From: an uncultured Candidatus Peribacteria bacterium
GTDB taxonomy: Bacteria > Patescibacteriota > Gracilibacteria > Peribacterales > Peribacteraceae
Length of the DNA stretch: 33,575 bases
Assembly: GCA_964643805.1 (NCBI GenBank)
Contig: CAZXUD010000001.1
Coordinates: 9,147 to 42,721, forward strand
Direction of reading: 5' to 3'
Within the stretch, counting starts at the first letter, position 1. Each line of letters begins with the position of its first letter. Under the pieces are notes generated by a model. That model was not told the DNA's origin and did no database searches. It saw nothing but the letters and a program-made list of their open reading frames with translations. Shown here one piece after another: positions 12,905 through 33,575 of this stretch. A program made the translations under genes and the position numbers.

Positions 12905-14002
12905 ATGCCTCTGATGCGACGGTTGATTCTAACCATAACCGCCTTTCTGGTGGTTCCTACACTTGCGCTGGCCGAACAGCCAGCCACCCACGTGACCCGG
13001 GCCGAAGCGGCCATGCTTCTTTTGAGTACCCTAGGTGAGCCCATCCCAGAGCGACAAAGTACGTATGTGGATGTCATCACGAAGCAGTGGTACACGCCCT
13101 ATGTCTTGGAGGCGGTGCATCGCCGTATTTTCGAACCGAATAAAATGAACGGGTTGATTCAGCCGCACCGTGCCGTGACGCGCGCCGAATTACTGAAGAT
13201 GATGTCGGTGGCGTTTGGCCTACAGACCAATCTGCCCTCACACTACAGTGACGTTGCAACGGGCGCCTGGTTTGCTCCGTATGCGGGCATTGCAGAAAAG
13301 CACACGCTCTTCCCGGGAACAACGAATGGCCAGCTGCAACCGAATGCGTCAGTAACGCATGCCGATGCAGCAGCTGCCTTGATTACCATTTTGAATAACT
13401 ACCCAAACTTACGCGGCTCTGCGACAGCCATGGAACGGCGCGCTGCGCGTATGGCCAGTAAACATGGAGCTGCTCCTACGCAGGGACAATCGAGTTCATC
13501 GTTTGCGACAACGAATATGGTGAAGCGTTCCACAGTGCGCGCTACGACAAGATCCACCGACGTCGCTTCCGAGAGTAAAGGGCAGCTGCTCAACTTGATT
13601 AATGAGGAACGAAAAAATGCTGGCCAGGCACCACTCGTGGAAAATATTTTCCTGAGCAAAGCCGCCCTCGGTCATGCCCGCGACATGTGGGACCGTGGCT
13701 ACTTTAGTCACATTAGCCCCGAAGGTGAAACCTTCGCTGACCGCATTACAGAGAGTGGCTATCTAGAAGTTTCCGATGCCGAATGTGGTTGCACCACCAA
13801 CTGCATCTGCCAACCGGAATACGCGATTGGGGAAAATATTGCTCAAGGACAAATGACCCCCGATCAAGCCGTGGCAGACTGGATGAATTCAGGACCCCAC
13901 AAACAAAATATTCTGAGCGCCAATTACAACGAAACGGGTATTGGCATCTTTGGGAATGTTTGGGTCCAAACCTTTGGCAAGAGGACGGTAAAACGGCATT
14001 AG
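12905..14002 (+). CDS. Secreted protein: signal peptide, two SLH-like repeats and a C-terminal CAP/SCP (PR-1, YkwD-like) domain
   Basis: Signal peptide MPLMRRLILTITAFLVVPTLALA. SLH-like repeats YVDVITKQWYTPYVLEAV...AVTRAELLKMM and YSDVATGAWFAPYAGIAEK...SVTHADAAAALITIL. CAP motifs LLNLINEERKNAG, GHARDMWDRGYFSHISPEG, GENIAQG, DWMNSGPHKQNILSANYNETGIGI. It is the only plus-strand gene inside the r-protein cluster. Confidence 0.8.
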   Translation: MPLMRRLILTITAFLVVPTLALAEQPATHVTRAEAAMLLLSTLGEPIPERQSTYVDVITKQWYTPYVLEAVHRRIFEPNKMNGLIQPHRAVTRAELLKMMSVAFGLQTNLPSHYSDVATGAWFAPYAGIAEKHTLFPGTTNGQLQPNASVTHADAAAALITILNNYPNLRGSATAMERRAARMASKHGAAPTQGQSSSSFATTNMVKRSTVRATTRSTDVASESKGQLLNLINEERKNAGQAPLVENIFLSKAALGHARDMWDRGYFSHISPEGETFADRITESGYLEVSDAECGCTTNCICQPEYAIGENIAQGQMTPDQAVADWMNSGPHKQNILSANYNETGIGIFGNVWVQTFGKRTVKRH

Positions 14003-25247: not shown

Positions 25248-26837
25248 ATGATGTGGGTCGATCATCTCCTGGAAGAAATTGAAGAGCGTTTCAAAACGCA
25301 GATTGGTAAGAAGGAACCGCTCTTAATTCGTGATGAAAAGACACTTTCGGGACGGGTTCACGTGGGGTCATTGCGAGGTATTGTCATCCATGGACTTATC
25401 GCCCAGGTACTCGACCAAAAAAACATTAAGAATGAATTTAAATTCGAGTTGAATGATTTTGATCCGATGGATGGCTTACCTGTTGATATGGATAAGTCGT
25501 ATCAAAGTCATATGGGAAAATCTTTGTATGAGGTACCCGCTCATCAGTCGGGCGCAGAAAATTATCCGATGGTCTTTGGTAATGAATTAAAGGAAGTTGT
25601 TGCTGATCTTGGATTACCTATCGATTTCTACGCTTTAAGACCGTTATATACGTCTGGAAAATTTAACGACACCATTCGCGACGCGCTCGACAACGCAGTC
25701 CATATTCGAAAAATATATTTGGAAGTGAGTGGTGGCGGTAAACCCGACGACTGGTTCCCCTTTAGTGTTATCTGTGAAAACTGTCGCAAGATTGGCACCA
25801 CACAAGTAACAAGTTGGGACGGAGAAAAGGTGCAATACACGTGCCGAAAAGACATGGTGAAATGGGCTGAAGGATGCGGCCATACTGGCTCTATTAACCC
25901 TTACGATGGCAATGGTAAGTTGCCTTGGAAGGTAGAATGGGCCGCAAAATGGAAAGTCTTAGGCGTCCATATTGAAGTGGCCGGCAAAGACCATAACGCT
26001 GCCGGTGGATCGCGCGAAATTAGTAAGCGAATCTCGGAGGAAATATTTAAGTATCCGGAACCGTTTAATATTCCGTACGAATTTTTCAATATTGGCGGCA
26101 AAAAAATGAGCGCTAGTAAAGGCTTGGGATCTTCTGCAAAAGAGGTGGCAGATTTGCTGCCGCCGACTCTCCTTAAATTATTGATGATTCGAAAACAACC
26201 GAATCAACCGATCGATTTTGATCCACAAGGAAATACCATTCCTACACTTTTTGACGAATACGATCGACTCTCAGACCACTATTTCCGTCGTCACGATGAA
26301 CCCAGTGAAGCATTTGCACGTGTTTTTGAATTAGCGCATATAGATATGTCAAAACAACCAGAAGATTTATGGCAAATGCGCTTTAGTGTCCTCAGTTTTG
26401 TGGTGCAAATGCCACATTTAAATTTGGAAGAAGAGGCAGAAAAGTTGAAAGGTTCCAAACTGACAAAACCAGAAAAGGCAGCGCTCGCCGAGCGTGCTGA
26501 CTACGTCCGTCGTTGGTTAGATGCATATGCAGCACCAGAGTATAAATACGAAATTCTGAAATCAGTTCCATCAGATTTTTCTATTAATGATGTTCAACGC
26601 AAGGCGCTGATTCAATTGAAAGATGCTCTCGAAGAACCAAGCTTAAAATGGGAGGGTCCTGAAATTCACGCCATTATTCACCAAGTAAAAGCTGAGACCG
26701 GTGTGGAGCCTAAAGAACTTTTCCAGCCGCTGTATCGCATGTTTCTTAACCGAACAAGCGGACCTCAAGTTGGTTGGTTCTTGAGTACCTTTGACAGGCA
26801 ATTAGTTCTGGAACGACTGCAAGCTTCTGTTTCATAA
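25248..26837 (+). CDS. lysK: Lysyl-tRNA synthetase, class I
   Basis: Class I LysRS signature: SGRVHVGSLRG (HIGH-equivalent) near the N-terminus, KMSASKG (KMSKS) and a Cys cluster CENCRK...C...CGH. 529 aa, the typical LysRS-1 size. Confidence 0.9.
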   Translation: MMWVDHLLEEIEERFKTQIGKKEPLLIRDEKTLSGRVHVGSLRGIVIHGLIAQVLDQKNIKNEFKFELNDFDPMDGLPVDMDKSYQSHMGKSLYEVPAHQSGAENYPMVFGNELKEVVADLGLPIDFYALRPLYTSGKFNDTIRDALDNAVHIRKIYLEVSGGGKPDDWFPFSVICENCRKIGTTQVTSWDGEKVQYTCRKDMVKWAEGCGHTGSINPYDGNGKLPWKVEWAAKWKVLGVHIEVAGKDHNAAGGSREISKRISEEIFKYPEPFNIPYEFFNIGGKKMSASKGLGSSAKEVADLLPPTLLKLLMIRKQPNQPIDFDPQGNTIPTLFDEYDRLSDHYFRRHDEPSEAFARVFELAHIDMSKQPEDLWQMRFSVLSFVVQMPHLNLEEEAEKLKGSKLTKPEKAALAERADYVRRWLDAYAAPEYKYEILKSVPSDFSINDVQRKALIQLKDALEEPSLKWEGPEIHAIIHQVKAETGVEPKELFQPLYRMFLNRTSGPQVGWFLSTFDRQLVLERLQASVS

Positions 26838-26838
26838 G

Positions 26839-27438
26839 ATGAATACCACTCCTCTCCTCCAACACGCTGAGTATGGTCATCTCTTACCGGCTGCCCATGG
26901 CTTATTAGAAGCTCATGCAGATCAAACCAAGGCTCATTTAATCGCCACTGGAGCCGCGATGGAGGCCTTAGCCAAGCGGTTTAATGGACATTCCGAAACA
27001 TGGAAAGTGGCTGGCATGCTGCACGATTTAGACTGGGATAAATTAGATAAAGATGCCGAAGCTCACTGCGGTAAAACATTGGAAGAGCTGCTGGCATCTG
27101 TGGAAGCTCCTGATGAATTGCTCGCTGATATTCGTGCCCACTATCAGGCAAAATACGGCGCTGAGTATCCGTTAGATACCATGCTCCGTAAGTGCCTTTA
27201 CTGTGTAGATGAATTAACAGGCTTCATTGTTGCTGTAGCACTCGTGCGACCAAGTAAAAAACTATTTGATTTGGAAGTAAAAAGCGTCACAAAGAAATTA
27301 AAAGACAAAAGTTTTGCTGCTCAAGTTGATCGCACGCAAATTCAGCAATGTGAAACAATGCTGGGTATTCCGCTCAATGAATTTATTGAATTGACGTTGG
27401 GCGCTATGAAACCAGTTGCAGCAGAAATGGGACTATAG
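26839..27438 (+). CDS. HD-domain metal-dependent phosphohydrolase
   Basis: H...HD motif (AGMLHDLDWDK) with downstream H/D residues (IRAHY, CVDELTG). Starts 1 nt after the lysK stop. Confidence 0.7.
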   Translation: MNTTPLLQHAEYGHLLPAAHGLLEAHADQTKAHLIATGAAMEALAKRFNGHSETWKVAGMLHDLDWDKLDKDAEAHCGKTLEELLASVEAPDELLADIRAHYQAKYGAEYPLDTMLRKCLYCVDELTGFIVAVALVRPSKKLFDLEVKSVTKKLKDKSFAAQVDRTQIQQCETMLGIPLNEFIELTLGAMKPVAAEMGL

Positions 27439-27442
27439 AGCT

Positions 27443-30427
27443 TTAACTCTTCCTCTTCTTCCGTCTCATTAATCCGAAGCCTGCAGCTGCGCCAGCTGCG
27501 CCAAAGACAATGATTTCTGGTCCAGTACTGCTGAGCGGACTGCCTGATGGTTGATTGAAGGCGCCAACAGGAACGTTGCCACCTGGACCTCCAGCATTGT
27601 TGCCGAAGATAAAGCCGCCATTAGTGCCTTGTAACCATGAAGAAGCGGCACCATGTCCATCGGCTGCGCTGCCTGAAACATAACGACCATTCACCATAAC
27701 TTCTCGTTGGCACAGCCGCGTGCAACCGTCGCCATTAATGTAGTTATGGTCGTCGCATTGCTCACCAGGATCCAACACGCCATCGCCACAGGCACCACGA
27801 GAACAATCTAGCCGACAAGCAGCACCCGGAGCATTGGAATTCCATTCGCCTAAGTCACAGTGCTCCCCAGGATTTTGTAGGCCGTCGCCACAATTCGGCA
27901 GGATGTATCGACCTTGTTCCGAACAAGCGTACGGAGCATTTGTGTTGTTTGCAGCTGGGTCACATTGCTCACCCAAAGCTCGTTGTACAACGCCATCTCC
28001 TAAACTCCCCTGCTCAAAGAAACACGTGGCAGCGCAGCCATCTTGGTCAAAGAAGTTACCGTCGTCACATTCTTCGCCTGCGTTCGTTTGGCCATTGCCG
28101 CAAGTGAAGACACCCAGAACAAGTGACGTTTCTATACGACAGTTATGTGCGCAACCGTCACCAAACAATTGGTTACCGTCGTCGCACTGTTCACCAAAGG
28201 TAAGAATGCGATCACCACAGTACGGTTCTCTACCCGCTTCCAAAATACAAGATGTGCTGCAGCCGTCGTTATTGTTAGCATTTCCGTCGTCACATTGTTC
28301 AATGGCAGAAAGCACGCGGTTGCCACAGTAACCACCGGCACCACCATACCCACCCTGGCCACCTACTCCGCCAATACCACCAATTCCGCCTTGGCCGCCT
28401 ATATTTCCAATGCCTCCTATACCGCCTTGGCCGCCAATTCCTCCTTGGGTACCAGCAACCGTACCACCAGCATTTGTTCCCCCGATTGTTCCTCCAGCAA
28501 GAGTTCCACCATTGGTTCCACTATTGCCACCGCTTTGACCCGCCGTACCACCAACTCCTCCCACCCCACCCTGACCACCCATACCTGCAGTTCCGCCAGT
28601 TGTTCCACTAATACCACCACCAGTATTCCCCGATACACCTCCCCCTTGGCCACTAATTCCGCCTTGGCCGCCCACTCCGCCGATGCCACCTTGGCCGCCG
28701 ATACCTCCACCAGTATCTGGGCTACCAAAACCTTCGATAGTGCATGATGCATTACAACCATCACCCGAGAGTGTGTTGTTGTCGTCACATTGTTCCGGAA
28801 TATCGACAATTCCATCGCCACAGAAAGCAAATCCACCAGGACCACCGGGCCCGCCGCCAATACCACCGATGCCACCTTGCCCACCGATTGCACCAGAAAT
28901 TCCTGCTCCACCGATACCAGCGACACCGCCTTGCGTTCCCCCGATAGTACCAGCCACGGTTCCTCCACCAATGGTTCCACCTGCAAGGGTGCCACCATTT
29001 GTCCCACTGATACCACCAGCTTGACCTGCATTACCACCAATACCGGACGTGCCGCCCTGGGTCCCACCTAGTGTTCCAGAAAACGTACCTCCGATTGTTC
29101 CTCCGATAGTTGTTCCACCATTCGTTCCAGTGTTGCTTCCACCCGTAGTTCCTGAAATAGATCCTCCACCAGTGGTGCCTGCAGTACCTCCATTTGTTCC
29201 GCTGACACTTCCACCAGTTGTGCCAGAAACAGAACCGCCATTTGTACCAGACGTTGAACCCCCCGTTGTTCCAACAGTTCCCCCATTCGTTCCACTCACA
29301 CCTCCACCAGTGGTACCAGAAACAGAACCTCCTCCAGTTGTACCTGCAATAGCGCCAGCGGTTCCCCCGCCAGTATTAGCAGCAGGGTGTGAATCGCCGG
29401 TAGTACCGGCAACACCACCTTGTGTTCCACCAGTTGTAGAGCCTCCTAATTCAGACAAACAATTTGCAGAACAGCCATCACCCGAAGCGCTATTACCATC
29501 ATCACACTGTTCTCCTACCTGCTTAATACCATCTCCGCATATATATAAGGTAGGGCCGCCTCCAGACAATGTCCCTCCACCTCCTGTCGTATTGGTAGAT
29601 CCCGGTTGTTCACTGACACACGTGCTAGAACAACCATCTCCAGATTGATTGTCACCGTCATCACATTGCTCCCCTGGTTGAAGAATGCCATTACCACAAA
29701 TAGTGGCCCCACCACCTCCCGTCGTTCCTCCTGTCGTTCCAGCCGTACCACCGGTAGTACCCGCTGTTGAGCCACCAGTAGTTCCACCCGTTGTACCCGC
29801 CGTACCCCCTGTCGTTCCTCCCGTAGTTCCCCCGGTTGTTCCTGCTATACCTCCGGCTGTTCCGCCTGTTGTGCCTCCCGTTGTACCTGCTGTACCACCT
29901 GTCGTTCCTCCTGTCGTATTTCCACCGGGTGATGAACTTTGACCACCGGGGTTTTGGTTTTGGCAGGTGTTAGAACAATTGTCATTGTTATTGGAGTTAC
30001 CGTCATCACATTGTTCTCCATCTTGTACTATGGCGTTGCCACAACGTGGTCCCATGACACAGGTTTCACAAGCCACCGGCGATCCACAGAAGTTCGTCCA
30101 CCCATTCTGTTGATGCAACGTGCTTTGGTACGATGATTCAAAGAAAGCTAAACCCTGATCGGTCGACATTTGTTCCGTGGCAAACATTGCCTGCAAAAAT
30201 GTATTGAGTTCGGTATGCAAGCCAGCCTCGTCAAATGCGTAGACCTCGTCTAAGCAACAATACACAGATTTTTGGCCAGTTACTGGGTCCGGCGTGACTT
30301 GGTCACACATGCCGACATCCAAACCAATAACGTCACCGCTGAGCACATCACTCTGTAGTAAACCGACAATAACAGCCAGAGCCAGAACTACGAGAACAAC
30401 ACCGGCGTGACGTTTGGCAAAAGCCAT
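27443..30427 (-). CDS. Giant secreted cysteine-rich-repeat protein (10 DUF4215-like repeats, about 420 aa of GGx glycine-rich tracts, C-terminal sorting-signal-like tail)
   Basis: Start at ATG 30427 (MAFAKRHAGVVLVVLALAVIVGLLQS, a signal peptide or anchor). The ORF-track start at 30547 overlaps the upstream gene. Ten repeats of the form CG(D/N)G-x5-(G)E(Q/E)CDDGN-x3-(G)DGC-x3-C. The tail is LSSTGPEIIVFGAAGAAAGFGLMRRKKRKS. Confidence 0.85.
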   Translation of the reverse strand: MAFAKRHAGVVLVVLALAVIVGLLQSDVLSGDVIGLDVGMCDQVTPDPVTGQKSVYCCLDEVYAFDEAGLHTELNTFLQAMFATEQMSTDQGLAFFESSYQSTLHQQNGWTNFCGSPVACETCVMGPRCGNAIVQDGEQCDDGNSNNNDNCSNTCQNQNPGGQSSSPGGNTTGGTTGGTAGTTGGTTGGTAGGIAGTTGGTTGGTTGGTAGTTGGTTGGSTAGTTGGTAGTTGGTTGGGGATICGNGILQPGEQCDDGDNQSGDGCSSTCVSEQPGSTNTTGGGGTLSGGGPTLYICGDGIKQVGEQCDDGNSASGDGCSANCLSELGGSTTGGTQGGVAGTTGDSHPAANTGGGTAGAIAGTTGGGSVSGTTGGGVSGTNGGTVGTTGGSTSGTNGGSVSGTTGGSVSGTNGGTAGTTGGGSISGTTGGSNTGTNGGTTIGGTIGGTFSGTLGGTQGGTSGIGGNAGQAGGISGTNGGTLAGGTIGGGTVAGTIGGTQGGVAGIGGAGISGAIGGQGGIGGIGGGPGGPGGFAFCGDGIVDIPEQCDDNNTLSGDGCNASCTIEGFGSPDTGGGIGGQGGIGGVGGQGGISGQGGGVSGNTGGGISGTTGGTAGMGGQGGVGGVGGTAGQSGGNSGTNGGTLAGGTIGGTNAGGTVAGTQGGIGGQGGIGGIGNIGGQGGIGGIGGVGGQGGYGGAGGYCGNRVLSAIEQCDDGNANNNDGCSTSCILEAGREPYCGDRILTFGEQCDDGNQLFGDGCAHNCRIETSLVLGVFTCGNGQTNAGEECDDGNFFDQDGCAATCFFEQGSLGDGVVQRALGEQCDPAANNTNAPYACSEQGRYILPNCGDGLQNPGEHCDLGEWNSNAPGAACRLDCSRGACGDGVLDPGEQCDDHNYINGDGCTRLCQREVMVNGRYVSGSAADGHGAASSWLQGTNGGFIFGNNAGGPGGNVPVGAFNQPSGSPLSSTGPEIIVFGAAGAAAGFGLMRRKKRKS
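28328..29950 (-). repeat. Degenerate in-frame GGx (Gly/Thr/Ile/Gln/Ser) low-complexity coding tracts
   Basis: Three main tracts: about 29699-29950 (GGTTGGTAGTT...), 28823-29449 (GTTGGSVSGTNGG...GGQGGIGGIGGGPGGPGG) and 28328-28732 (GGIGGQGGIGGVGGQGG...GGYGGAGGY). They are separated by single Cys-rich repeats. The plus strand here is strongly C-rich and G-poor. Confidence 0.9.
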
Positions 30428-30482
30428 GATGGGAATAGTGTACAAAAAGGAATTGGCATTGGATATAGGTTCTTGTGAGAGC

Positions 30483-33400
30483 CTATTTCCTGCGCTTGCG
30501 TCGCATCCAGGCGAAGCCTGCGGCAGCACCGCTTGCCATAATTGCAACTGCTACTGGACCCGTGTCTCCGACTGGTGCACGACCAGCGTTCGTTCCCGTC
30601 AGTTGTGCCAATGGCAAGTTGTATGGCAGCGGCTGTGTATTCGGACCGCCAGGAATTTGGCCGTAAATGCCGGAGACATCCTGAGGCCAGACTGGGTAAC
30701 CATTCACCGTGCCACCTGGTTGTACGGCAGCACCTTGTTCAACCGAACAGATGCGGCTGCAACCGTCGCCTGGCACCAAGTTGCCATCGTCGCATTGCTC
30801 GCCACTGTCCAAGATTGAATCGCCACATCTTGTTCTGGAACAGTCGGTGCGGCAGAGCGAATTTGGCTGGTCAGAATTATCGTTTCCAAGATCACATTCT
30901 TCACCTTCATCCATGCGACCGTTGCCACAGAAGTTAAGGATGTAGCGACAATCATCATTACATTGCAACGGAGCGTTAGGATCCGTTGCTGATGGTTCAC
31001 ATTGCTCACCGAGAGCGTGTTGCACGACGCCATCGCCACAAATACCACGTTCAAGGAAGCAGGTTGCGCCACAGCCATCAAAGTCACGGCGATTGCCGTC
31101 GTCACATTCCTCGCCAGCATCCACGCTACCGTTACCACAGAGTGCGCCGCCAGCAACAATACGCGACTCAATGCGGCAAGAAACACTGCAACCGTCGCCC
31201 GAAACATTGTTACGGTCATCGCACTGTTCGCCCAACGTAATAATACCGTCGCCGCAACGAACAGCAGTGCCCGGCTCTAACACGCAGCTCGCGCTACAGC
31301 CATCGCTTGGCGAAAGATTACCATCGTCACATTGCTCATTAACGTTGAGGACACGGTCGCCACATCGGCCCACACCGTTACCACCTTCTAAGGTACAAGC
31401 GAGGGAACAACCATCGCCTGGCACTTGGTTAGCATCGTCACACTGTTCTGGGCTTTGGAGCAGACCATCGCTGCACAGAGCATTGCGTGTTTCCAATCTG
31501 CAAGCGTTGGTGCAGCCGTCGTTATTTTGATTATTGTGGTCATCACATTGTTCAGCTGCATCCAAACGACCATCACCACAGAAGCGGACTTGGCCACTCG
31601 TTTCACCGCCGGCTCCGCTAATGCTACCGGAAGGTCCGCCAGTTGTTCCCGCATTGGTTCCACCAGGACCACCGGCTGTTGTTCCACCTGTGTCACCATT
31701 CGTACAACCGCTTATTTGGCGGTGTGAACAAGCGCCAGTGGTACAGACATCTTCTGTACATGAGTTATTGTCGTTACAAGAACTATTACTTGTACATGCG
31801 GAGGCTGTCTGACACTGATCGCTGCAACTGACACTTTGTGCACGATCGTACGAACAGGTGTACGTGACACCATTACACTGTGCATCGCTGGTACACAGAA
31901 TGCCGTTTGGATCCGCACCACAGCGGTTGACCGCTGTGCCTGGAATGCGCTCACACTTGCGACAATCGGCATCGGTGCGACAATCCTTATTTGGAAGGTG
32001 GCTGCAAGAACTACCGTTATCGCAAAGCTCTTTCAAGCTTGCACTTGGAGCACCATTTCTGCCAACGCGCACGGCGAGTGTCTTGTCTGTTTTCCCATCG
32101 CCGCAGTACTCAAATAGACACGTCTTGGAGCAGCCATCAAAGTCAGCGCTATTACTGTCATCGCACTCTTCCACCCCTTCTACAACACCGTTGCCACAAA
32201 CGCTATTTTGAGCAGTGCAGTTATTGGAACAGTTGACGTCATCTTGGGTGTTGTAAGCACAAGCGTAAGTGGTCGTGGCACAGTCTGCATTGGTTGTGCA
32301 GGAGATTCCGTTTGGATCACCAGCACACCTCTTTATATTATTGCTAACATTTCCAGAATTGTTAGCCATTGGTAAGCACACGCGACAATCAGCATTCGTG
32401 CGGCAATCAAAGTTCTGTTTGAGTTGGCCTCCAATCACACAAACGCTGCCGTTATCACAAGCTTCGCTCCGTGTGACTTGAATAGCACCATCACCACAGA
32501 ATTCATTTTGGCAGCCTTTTGTACAGCCATCACCATCGGCACTATTACTGTCATCACATTCCTCTGGACCCTCCTGCAGACCGTCGCCACAAACTGGGTT
32601 ACACGTGGTGTCGGTTGGATTACAAGGTGCAGCGCCATGCAAACAGTTCACACATGTTGCATCTTGTGCCTGGTCGTACACACAGCTGTAGGACTCATTT
32701 GTACACTCGGTATCTGCCGTACAAAGTTTGCCATTGGGGTCACCGCCACAGCGGCTGGTGCTTGTGCCCGAAATGCGCGTGCACTTGCGGCAATCGGCAT
32801 TGTCACGGCAGCTCAAGTTTGCATTCTGACTACAGACGTTACCGTTATCACAGACCTCACCATTCAAGGTCGATTGAATGACGGCATCACCACAGAATTC
32901 ATTGAGACACGTCTTGGAACAACCATCGCCATCAGCATTATTACCATCATCGCATTTCTCCAGACCATCAATAATGTTGTTACCACAGAGTGAACTACCA
33001 CCCAGCTGGAGACAGCCACTCGTACACTGAGTGCTTGCCTGAACATTGTATTCACACGTGTAGGTTGTATCGGTGCAGTCCGCTGCGGTGCTACATAACT
33101 TACCATTTGGATCACCCGCGCAACGTTTTGCGCTGGTGCCACTAATTGCTATACAAGTACGGCAGTCGGCATTCGTGCGGCAGTCAAAGTTCTGGTTTAG
33201 TTGCCCACCAATGCGACAGACGCTGCCGTTATCACACTGTTCCGTGAGAGCAGCTTGAATAGAACCATCACCACAGAATTCATTCTTACAAGTCTTGCTG
33301 CAGCCATCTTGGTCGGCACTGTTGTTGTCGTCACATTCTTCCGTGGCTTCCTGAATACCATTTCCACAGAGGTTAACGCACAGACCATCATTGCCACAGA

Positions 33401-33575
33401 CTCCACTTGGACAATCGCTGTCTTCTTCACATTCAATGACACACTGGTTGCTGCAGCCATCACCAGAGGCGGTATTACCGTCATCACATCCTTCTGTACC
33501 CTCGCGCGTGCCGTTGCCACAGAGTGGGTTACAGCTAGCTTCGGTTGGGTCACATGGTGCTACCTCGCGATGACA
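30483..33575 (-). CDS. Giant cysteine-rich-repeat surface protein, paralogue of the downstream gene; 5' end beyond the window (at least 1030 aa)
   Basis: The ORF-track start at 32867 is an internal TTG (Leu). Hand translation of the same frame stays open with the same Cys-rich repeat pattern from 32868 to 33575 (...[38 protein letters not shown]...). The tail is [29 protein letters not shown]. Confidence 0.85.
   Translation of the reverse strand, partial: [1030 protein letters not shown]
31581..33368 (-). repeat. Four tandem ~127-132-aa (~390 nt) composite Cys-rich coding repeats
   Basis: Units start at 33368, 32987, 32591 and 32198. Each unit comprises a DUF4215-like repeat, EFCGD(G)xxQ, CDNGSxC, DCRT(N/D)ADCRxC, RC(A/G)GDPNGxxC and (T/S)YxCxY. 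They are diverged at the DNA level. Confidence 0.8.

Follow-up and report, generated by a model that had tools for sequence, protein, structure and literature searches.

A minus-strand gene in a 33,575-nucleotide (nt) stretch of an uncultured Candidatus Peribacteria genome (GenBank assembly GCA_964643805.1, contig CAZXUD010000001.1, positions 9,147 to 42,721; the whole stretch is called the window below) encodes a 994-amino-acid (aa) protein with four glycine-rich tracts, which are probably real, lineage-specific and greatly expanded spacers between the putatively disulfide-bonded modules of a Peribacteraceae surface protein. The tracts (T1-T4) contain no Cys, lie between repeats of the DUF4215 family and add up to 464 aa, or 47% of the protein, about 420 aa of which are strictly Gly-rich. 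The most likely function is an ordinary one, that of a spacer or tether; the composition and size are unusual and lineage-specific. The source assembly measures 0.92 Mb in 120 contigs and is 98% complete.

The minus-strand open reading frame (ORF; 27443-30547) is open back to a TTG at 30547, and the ATG at 30427 is most plausibly the start of the 994-aa product. The protein begins with a basic and hydrophobic N-terminus (aa 1-25), and its C-terminal tail reads LSSTGP-EIIVFGAAGAAAGFGLM-RRKKRKS. Assignment to DUF4215/TIGR02232 was based on multiple repeats of ~38-47 aa with the pattern C-x10-C-x10-C-x3-C, the signature CGDG...E.CDDGN...GDGC and a score above the curated cut-off. The protein, with a Cys spacing of 11/11/4, belongs to both families, scoring 167.5 bits against PF13948 (DUF4215; cut-off 27) and 283.4 bits against TIGR02232 (cut-off 20.8), in eight stretches each. 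No family beyond these two was found in a Pfam and NCBIfam scan of the protein (Pfam E <= 0.01), a promoter and terminator scan around the gene yielded nothing above shuffle expectation, and an exact-protein look-up in public assemblies found the protein not to be on record. The features of the gene are as follows:

27443-30427, minus strand: whole gene for the 994-aa Cys-rich-repeat surface protein, stop codon (27443-27445) counted in (DUF4215 7e-50, TIGR02232 2e-86)
30353-30427, minus strand: predicted signal peptide or signal-anchor, aa 1-25, MAFAKRH followed by VVLVVLALAVIVGLL (sequence; AlphaFold2 (AF2) helix at 4-25; position kept in orthologues)
30044-30337, minus strand: head domain, aa 31-128, with PDPxTG and YCCLDE motifs and seven invariant Cys (alignments A1-A3; AF2 predicted local distance difference test (pLDDT) 87, predicted template modelling score (pTM) 0.74)
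29963-30043, minus strand: DUF4215 repeat 1, C129-C155 (repeat profiles, sequence, orthologue alignment)
29699-29962, minus strand: tract T1, aa 156-243, 88 aa, G 42%, T 34%, period 4 (TTGG/TAG) (composition, spacing)
29618-29698, minus strand: DUF4215 repeat 2, C244-C270 (repeat profile, sequence, orthologue alignment)
29540-29617, minus strand: tract T2, aa 271-296, 26 aa, a short G/T/S linker (composition, orthologue alignment)
29459-29539, minus strand: DUF4215 repeat 3, C297-C323 (repeat profile, sequence, orthologue alignment)
28823-29458, minus strand: tract T3, aa 324-535, 212 aa, G 43%, T 19%, SGT(T/N)GG-type units (composition, spacing, orthologue alignment)
28856-29020, minus strand: 55-aa block of T3, aa 470-524, paralogous to the T4 block (41/55 identical; proportion of synonymous differences (pS) 0.73, of nonsynonymous differences (pN) 0.20)
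28742-28822, minus strand: DUF4215 repeat 4, C536-C562 (repeat profile, sequence, orthologue alignment)
28328-28741, minus strand: tract T4, aa 563-700, 138 aa, G 53%, GGX with period 3 (X = I/Q/V), ending in GGYGGAGGY (composition, spacing)
28370-28534, minus strand: 55-aa block of T4, aa 632-686, paralogous to the T3 block (block comparison, shuffles)
27710-28327, minus strand: contiguous C-terminal array of DUF4215-type repeats, aa 701-906 (kept in the two closest orthologues, L015 and L025, and in the neighbouring gene)
27536-27709, minus strand: pre-anchor linker, aa 907-964, 58 aa (sequence, orthologue alignment)
27446-27535, minus strand: predicted LPXTG-like sorting signal, aa 965-994 (LSSTGP, an 18-aa Gly/Ala-rich hydrophobic helix, RRKKRKS)

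Pooled, the four tracts consist of 45% G, 19% T, 7% S, 6% A and 6% I; they lack C, K, R and W and hold only five charged residues. The enrichment in Gly is far beyond chance: the mean over the long ORFs of the genome is 7.1%, and genome-wide, 40-aa windows with at least 40% Gly were found only in the studied ORF and in a 36-aa tract of the neighbouring paralogue. A reading made earlier from the sequence alone (the sequence-only reading) had described Gly-rich tracts interleaved with single DUF4215 repeats at 28328-29950 (aa 160-700), a composition that shifts along the protein and a GGYGGAGGY terminus, and all of this was borne out. The share of Thr is 34% in T1 but only 9% in T4, in which Ile reaches 9% and Gln 7%, and GGYGGAGGY closes T4 directly before C701. 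The Gly-Gly spacing follows a period of 4 in T1 (TTGG) and of 3 in T4 (GGX) and is mixed in T3. Runs of at least three GGX triplets account for only 84 of the 464 tract residues, the longest of them, in T4, comprising eight triplets (aa 677-700).

The placement of the tracts became apparent from orthologues. A total of 120 genomes of the family, none from the same genus, were searched, and the head-domain search returned 12 Peribacteraceae orthologues, which together with the studied protein form the 13-sequence alignment A2. Head domain (with PDPxTG, YCCLDE and the seven invariant Cys), repeat array and C-terminal tail are common to the orthologues. According to A2, each tract begins right after the final Cys of a repeat and stops right before the opening Cys of the following one, at junctions where ten of the 12 orthologues have 0-3 residues and the closest two (L015 and L025) have, at some of the junctions, linkers of 40-70 aa rich in Ser, Ala, Val, Pro and Glu. 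At the T1 junction, the orthologues have no residues except for L015, with a 40-aa S/A/V/P linker, and T3 has no counterpart in any of the 12, which have 2-3 residues there. No 40-aa window of an orthologue exceeds 28% Gly. Cys-free low-complexity sequence makes up 54% of the studied protein vs 17-34% of the 12 orthologues, in which it is mostly Ser-rich and located beside the N-terminal signal and the C-terminal anchor. Because the orthologues have 0-3 residues or S/A/P-rich linkers at these junctions, the aligned sequences indicate that the tracts are lineage-specific, greatly expanded inter-module spacers. Low-complexity spacers are thus a constant of the protein family, free in position, length and chemistry, and the studied genome holds the extreme Gly/Thr version.

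Searches beyond the family led only to the Cys repeats. A metagenome scan with the head domain gave DUF4215-repeat matches only and no close orthologue; phmmer with aa 297-727 against 1.84 billion representatives gave 8107 matches, all through the Cys repeats, and the four long-aligned ones inspected were without Gly tracts. A word-indexed search with aa 324-700 against 5.8 billion clusters gave seven matches, only through the repeat, and a search of PDB sequences with T4 gave zero.

At the DNA level, the tracts are not repetitive. Inside their 1.6 kb, exact repeats reach no more than 18 nt, and the strongest blastn match of the sequence to itself spans 58 nt at 84%. The 18 copies of the peptide GTTGG are encoded by 18 different 15-mers, with a pairwise DNA identity of 0.773 vs 0.765 +/- 0.008 under random synonymous codons, and for seven motifs the copy-to-copy DNA identity equals that of random synonymous draws (z between -1 and 1.2). 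The sequence-only reading was therefore right that the DNA is degenerate rather than made of exact copies. Its tandem-repeat check for periodicity, run with Tandem Repeats Finder (TRF), did find periods of 9-45 nt, but in short degenerate arrays only (62-92% matches). All four Gly codons are used in the tracts, GGG being the rarest, and G occupies 55%, 48% and 12% of the first, second and third codon positions. The frame, which according to the same reading might prove to be broken within the tracts, is open for 994 codons, and the conserved Cys repeats are re-entered in register after each of the four tracts. As had been noticed, other frames and the opposite strand do contain long spurious ORFs (28145-28747, 28683-29024 and 29049-29648 on the plus strand; 28417-29067 on the minus strand), which are mirror images of GGN/ACN codons. 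The description of the coding strand as extremely G-rich was overstated, with G at 37.5%, and the suggested G-quadruplex propensity comes down to one canonical motif (28560-28580), on par with mononucleotide shuffles (mean 0.71).

Two parts of the tracts are related to each other. A 55-aa block of T3 (aa 470-524) and one of T4 (aa 632-686) are identical at 41 of 55 positions, including an identical run of 15 residues, while shuffled tracts reached at most 26/55. By the Nei-Gojobori method, pS between the two blocks is 0.73 (saturated) and pN is 0.20, giving a ratio of nonsynonymous to synonymous divergence (dN/dS) of ~0.09; the Cys repeats located after each block have diverged further, with 48% identity and dN 0.48. 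Given the saturated pS, the low pN and the more diverged Cys repeats, the comparison points to an old duplication, after which the peptide sequence of the tract was retained by purifying selection. The sequence-only reading had argued for selection on composition; selection was confirmed, but composition is too weak a claim, since the peptide sequence itself has been kept.

A search of the 120 family genomes with T3 revealed three similar tracts, (GGDTSGTT)n, (TTGG)n and (D/E)TGGTTGG, in proteins bearing a prepilin N-methylation motif (L064 on G080:C14, L065 on G119:C47 and L066 on G085:C7), which lies above the Pfam cut-off in one of the three and below it in two. These tracts are 57-65% identical to T3 over 66-137 aa and join a pilin-like N-domain to large C-terminal domains. 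Like T1-T4, they represent a peptide idiom of GTTGG units linking domains of an extracellular protein in the same family; the host proteins, however, are unrelated, and the tracts are shorter (~60-110 aa) and contain Asp or Glu. At least one of them, unlike the studied gene, is a recent near-exact DNA tandem repeat: in L064, a 72-nt unit occurs 3.7 times at 96% identity, representing a recent expansion, which by analogy would show how such tracts are born. The tract of L066 is interrupted by a run of N. Given the TTGG-type tracts in pilin-like proteins of three of the 120 genomes, the TTGG-type linker is a recurring building block of extracellular proteins in Peribacteraceae.

Export and anchoring were assessed from the two ends of the protein and from the gene content of the genome. 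The motifs of the head domain (C-x-x-V-x-PDPxTG-x-K-x-VYCCLDE, F, H, W, C-G and CxxC) are kept in all 13 Peribacteraceae proteins. AF2, run with the 13-sequence alignment, predicts a small helical domain, with pLDDT 77-92 in the whole protein and pLDDT 87 and pTM 0.74 alone; Pfam and NCBIfam do not recognize the domain, and the PDB yielded no structural neighbour (best Foldseek E = 7.5). At the C-terminus, an LPXTG-type signal was defined as an LPXTG-like motif, a hydrophobic segment and a positively charged tail, along with a sortase in the same genome. In A2, G969 and P970 never vary and T968 hardly does, and the consensus of the sorting-signal family consists of a core (L)xx[TS]GP, a helix AAxGAAAGxxW(M/A) and a tail RRKRR, a non-canonical LPXTG variant. 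TIGR01167 scored 16.2 bits (cut-off 15.9) with the isolated tail only, and the tail of the neighbouring protein scored 14.9, below the cut-off. The (L)xx[TS]GP signal recurs in the 13 orthologous proteins and the paralogues upstream of them, and two further ORFs of the genome (contigs C11 and C116) have it as well. The genome contains sortases (three PF04203 matches, 75-82 bits, on contigs C32, C36 and C14), and a search of it found no competing sorting enzyme, that is, no Exosortase_EpsH and no Rhomboid. It also encodes three DsbA-like thioredoxins (oxidoreductases) and one PMT_2-type glycosyltransferase. We know of no test of sortase anchoring in any organism of the Candidate Phyla Radiation (CPR). 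Peribacteria have been described as encoding large Cys-rich extracellular proteins, probably related to attachment, and a sortase (PMC4736985).

On this basis, the protein would be exported via its N-terminal signal, and a sortase would recognize LSSTG|P and fix the C-terminus to the wall. The head domain would then be displayed distally, carried by a string of some ten small DUF4215 modules with four cysteines each, and may serve in adhesion. The uncharged tracts, changing from Gly/Thr (distal) to Gly/Ile/Gln (proximal), could act as long flexible or elastic tethers that extend the reach of the head and let the modules move independently; their 464 residues would have a contour length of ~160 nm (at an estimated ~0.35 nm per residue), and their Ser and Thr residues (28-39%) may bear O-glycans. 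The tracts probably go back to short units that were duplicated in tandem where modules meet, a process still visible in the near-exact DNA repeats of a relative's pilin-like gene, and the synonymous sites would subsequently have decayed while the peptide was held by purifying selection. In function, the nearest analogues may be the linkers or stalks found in modular adhesins with an anchor, and the mucin-like alternation of Cys-rich and low-complexity sequence.

Several points weigh against such tethers. The tract lengths come from a single short-read-type assembly of 120 contigs, in which the contig breaks off after a further 3 kb, within the adjacent repeat gene, and the comparison set of 120 family genomes is without a same-genus genome. 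The motif L-S-S-T-G has Ser, not Pro, at position 2, and its TIGR01167 score is just above the cut-off. The low confidence of AF2 in the tracts is unspecific, as the DUF4215 repeats are also poorly modelled, and is weak evidence for disorder. Furthermore, the strong purifying selection on the duplicated block exceeds what an entropic spacer would need, which hints at a specific structure or interaction. As to the assembly, collapse, expansion or chimeric joining of low-complexity reads could have produced the tract lengths or sequences, and the fragmentation typical of a metagenome-assembled genome, the contig end in the neighbouring repeat-rich gene and the run of N in the TTGG tract of a relative would all be in keeping with this. 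Nevertheless, we consider an artefact very improbable: since no exact repeat exceeds 18 nt, ordinary k-mers would cross the tracts unambiguously, the Cys repeats stay in register along 994 open codons, and the distribution of G over the codon positions is typical of coding sequence. The collapse that the sequence-only reading held plausible is thus unlikely, and so is slippage, because exact repeats stop at 18 nt and the synonymous sites of the GTTGG copies are fully randomized. This also bears on the idea of a contingency locus, in which slippage in Gly-codon repeats would vary length or frame and thereby switch the surface protein. Strain variation in the large extracellular proteins of Peribacteria (PMC4736985) and the 72-nt repeat in the pilin-like gene of the relative would suit it, but contingency loci are marked by near-exact tandem DNA repeats, and here the DNA is maximally de-repeated (TRF matches, synonymous positions and exact repeats alike) and offers no homopolymer or exact microsatellite for slippage, leaving this the least probable of the explanations considered.

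Polyglycine-II (PGII) helix bundles are known from springtail antifreeze proteins. Glycine-based order might also arise here: T4 and the last part of T3, if not all of the tracts, could fold into PGII bundles or sandwiches, or into 'glycine loops' held by the Ile, Val, Gln and Tyr residues at their regular intervals, and so make up a rigid or elastomeric element instead of a floppy linker. In T4, GGX recurs with period 3 in runs of up to eight triplets, so that an aliphatic residue or Gln at X could line one PGII face; the 55-aa block (dN/dS ~0.09) is better kept than the adjacent Cys repeat (dN 0.48); and the glycine triplets of PGRS proteins are predicted to form PGII sandwiches (PMC9436101). 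It is mainly the constraint on the tracts at the sequence level that keeps this explanation alive. However, AF2 gives the tracts no secondary structure (pLDDT 25-43, from a shallow alignment), whereas PGRS domains are reported to be confidently predicted (PMC9436101); only 84 of the 464 residues fall within GGX runs of at least three triplets, and the period of T1 is 4; nothing homologous to the tracts turned up among the 1.84 billion representatives, the 5.8 billion clusters or the PDB sequences; and the orthologues do without tracts or have S/A/P linkers at the same junctions. Overall, an ordered structure seems unlikely. About as doubtful is the more far-reaching proposal that the tracts are a selected, sequence-specific element, for example a PGII or 'glycine-loop' spring that would set the distance and compliance between an episymbiotic CPR cell and its host, with the TTGG linker as a Peribacteraceae-specific, possibly glycosylated tether block. 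If true, the tracts would be a counterpart, in a wall-anchored bacterial protein, to the glycine structures of the silk or PGRS type, with an independent origin.

Flexible spacers between modules, the reading preferred here, were compared with known systems. GGX quasi-repeats, which are thought to be elastic, are found in flagelliform and other spider silks, in plant glycine-rich cell-wall proteins and in the 'glycine loops' of keratin and loricrin. The tracts resemble these in their GGX-type quasi-repeats with scattered aliphatic and aromatic residues, but they have no detectable homology with them, are broken by the putative disulfide modules and belong to a bacterial protein that is probably wall-anchored. 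Spidroin terminal domains flanking GPGGX/GGX are absent (Pfam finds only DUF4215, and T4 is unmatched among PDB sequences). PE_PGRS proteins are characterized by a PE domain, by a linker with the GRPLI motif and by glycine triplets for which a PGII sandwich is predicted (PMC9436101). Like the studied protein, they are surface proteins with hundreds of residues in Gly-rich triplets, and T4 shares with PE_PGRS the GGX pattern with hydrophobic X and a Tyr at the end. The studied protein, however, has no PE domain (DUF4215 being the only Pfam match), no GRPLI string and no type VII secretion context; its tracts have periods of 3, 4 and 8, are Thr-rich rather than Ala/Asn-rich, form no PGII sandwich in AF2 and are encoded by non-repetitive DNA of ~54% GC. 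The resemblance to PE_PGRS and silk that the sequence-only reading had seen is therefore one of composition only.

The protein is closer to the large Cys-rich extracellular proteins of Peribacteria (Anantharaman et al. 2016, PMC4736985) and to proteins with DUF4215 or the 'Myxococcus cysteine-rich repeat' (TIGR02232), with which it shares the repeat family, the lineage, the signal peptide, the sortase, a predicted extracellular location, the arrangement in tandem gene clusters and low-complexity linkers between Cys-rich modules. The linkers differ in that they are Gly/Thr- and Gly/Ile/Gln-rich, not Ser/Ala/Pro-rich or of the GGS type, and in that they separate single repeats and take up 47-54% of the protein vs 17-34% in the 12 orthologues. 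As for the LPXTG adhesins of Gram-positive bacteria, the sortases in the genome correspond, and so would the putative signal of LxxTG motif, hydrophobic helix and basic tail and an N-terminal head held off the wall by repeats and low-complexity sequence. In contrast, the motif here is L-S-S-T-G-P (family consensus xxTGP), not LPXTG, and the spacers are internal and Gly-rich rather than Pro/Ser/Thr-rich and beside the anchor.

A life attached to other cells is assumed for CPR bacteria (Patescibacteria), and their large Cys-rich surface proteins rank among the foremost candidates for making this contact. For such proteins, the gene supplies a domain map of head, putative disulfide modules, spacers and sortase-type anchor, together with a conserved TGP sorting motif for the family. 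It is an extreme case of spacers that vary in length and chemistry between genera while the folded modules stay constant. Low-complexity linkers in anchored adhesins are a well-known category, and no long-standing question is opened; the purifying selection on a Gly-rich tract is a small testable hint of sequence-specific roles for low-complexity spacers.

Upstream of the gene lies a paralogue:

30483-33575, minus strand: upstream paralogue, cut by the contig end; it shares the sorting tail and has a 36-aa G/T tract (31590-31697)
30486-30575, minus strand: putative sorting signal of the upstream paralogue, with the same tail consensus

The paralogue is ~42% identical to the C-terminal third of the studied gene. 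Gene conversion between the tracts of the two neighbouring genes was considered and rejected, as their tracts have no DNA similarity. The window end is the contig end (C1, 42721 bases), and the assembly broke inside this repeat-rich gene. Upstream of several orthologues lies a Cys-rich protein (L017, L019 and L022) with the same tail, of 1437-1541 aa in the fetched part, in which several kinds of Cys-rich modules alternate with (GGS)n, SSSK and SSRSS linkers. A tandem pair, with a big Cys-rich protein first and the head-domain protein second, is thus maintained across genera.

Elsewhere in the window are ordinary core genes, namely those for RpoA, S4, SecY, Map, DprA and class I LysRS, as well as one tRNA-Thr. 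Another wall-associated secreted protein, with two S-layer homology (SLH) domains and a CAP/SCP domain (12905-14002, plus strand), is encoded amid the ribosomal/SecY cluster. The class I (archaeal-type) lysyl-tRNA synthetase (25248-27438, plus strand; PF01921, 4e-89) is directly followed by a 199-aa ORF, which is convergent with the surface-protein gene and ends 4 nt from its stop codon. Beside orthologues (L014 and L016-L024), minus-strand ORFs of ~300 aa encode a TPM_phosphatase-family protein with a very Gly-rich tail, ...GGFGGFGGGSFGGGGAGGKW, which is kept across genera and represents a different kind of Gly-rich sequence.

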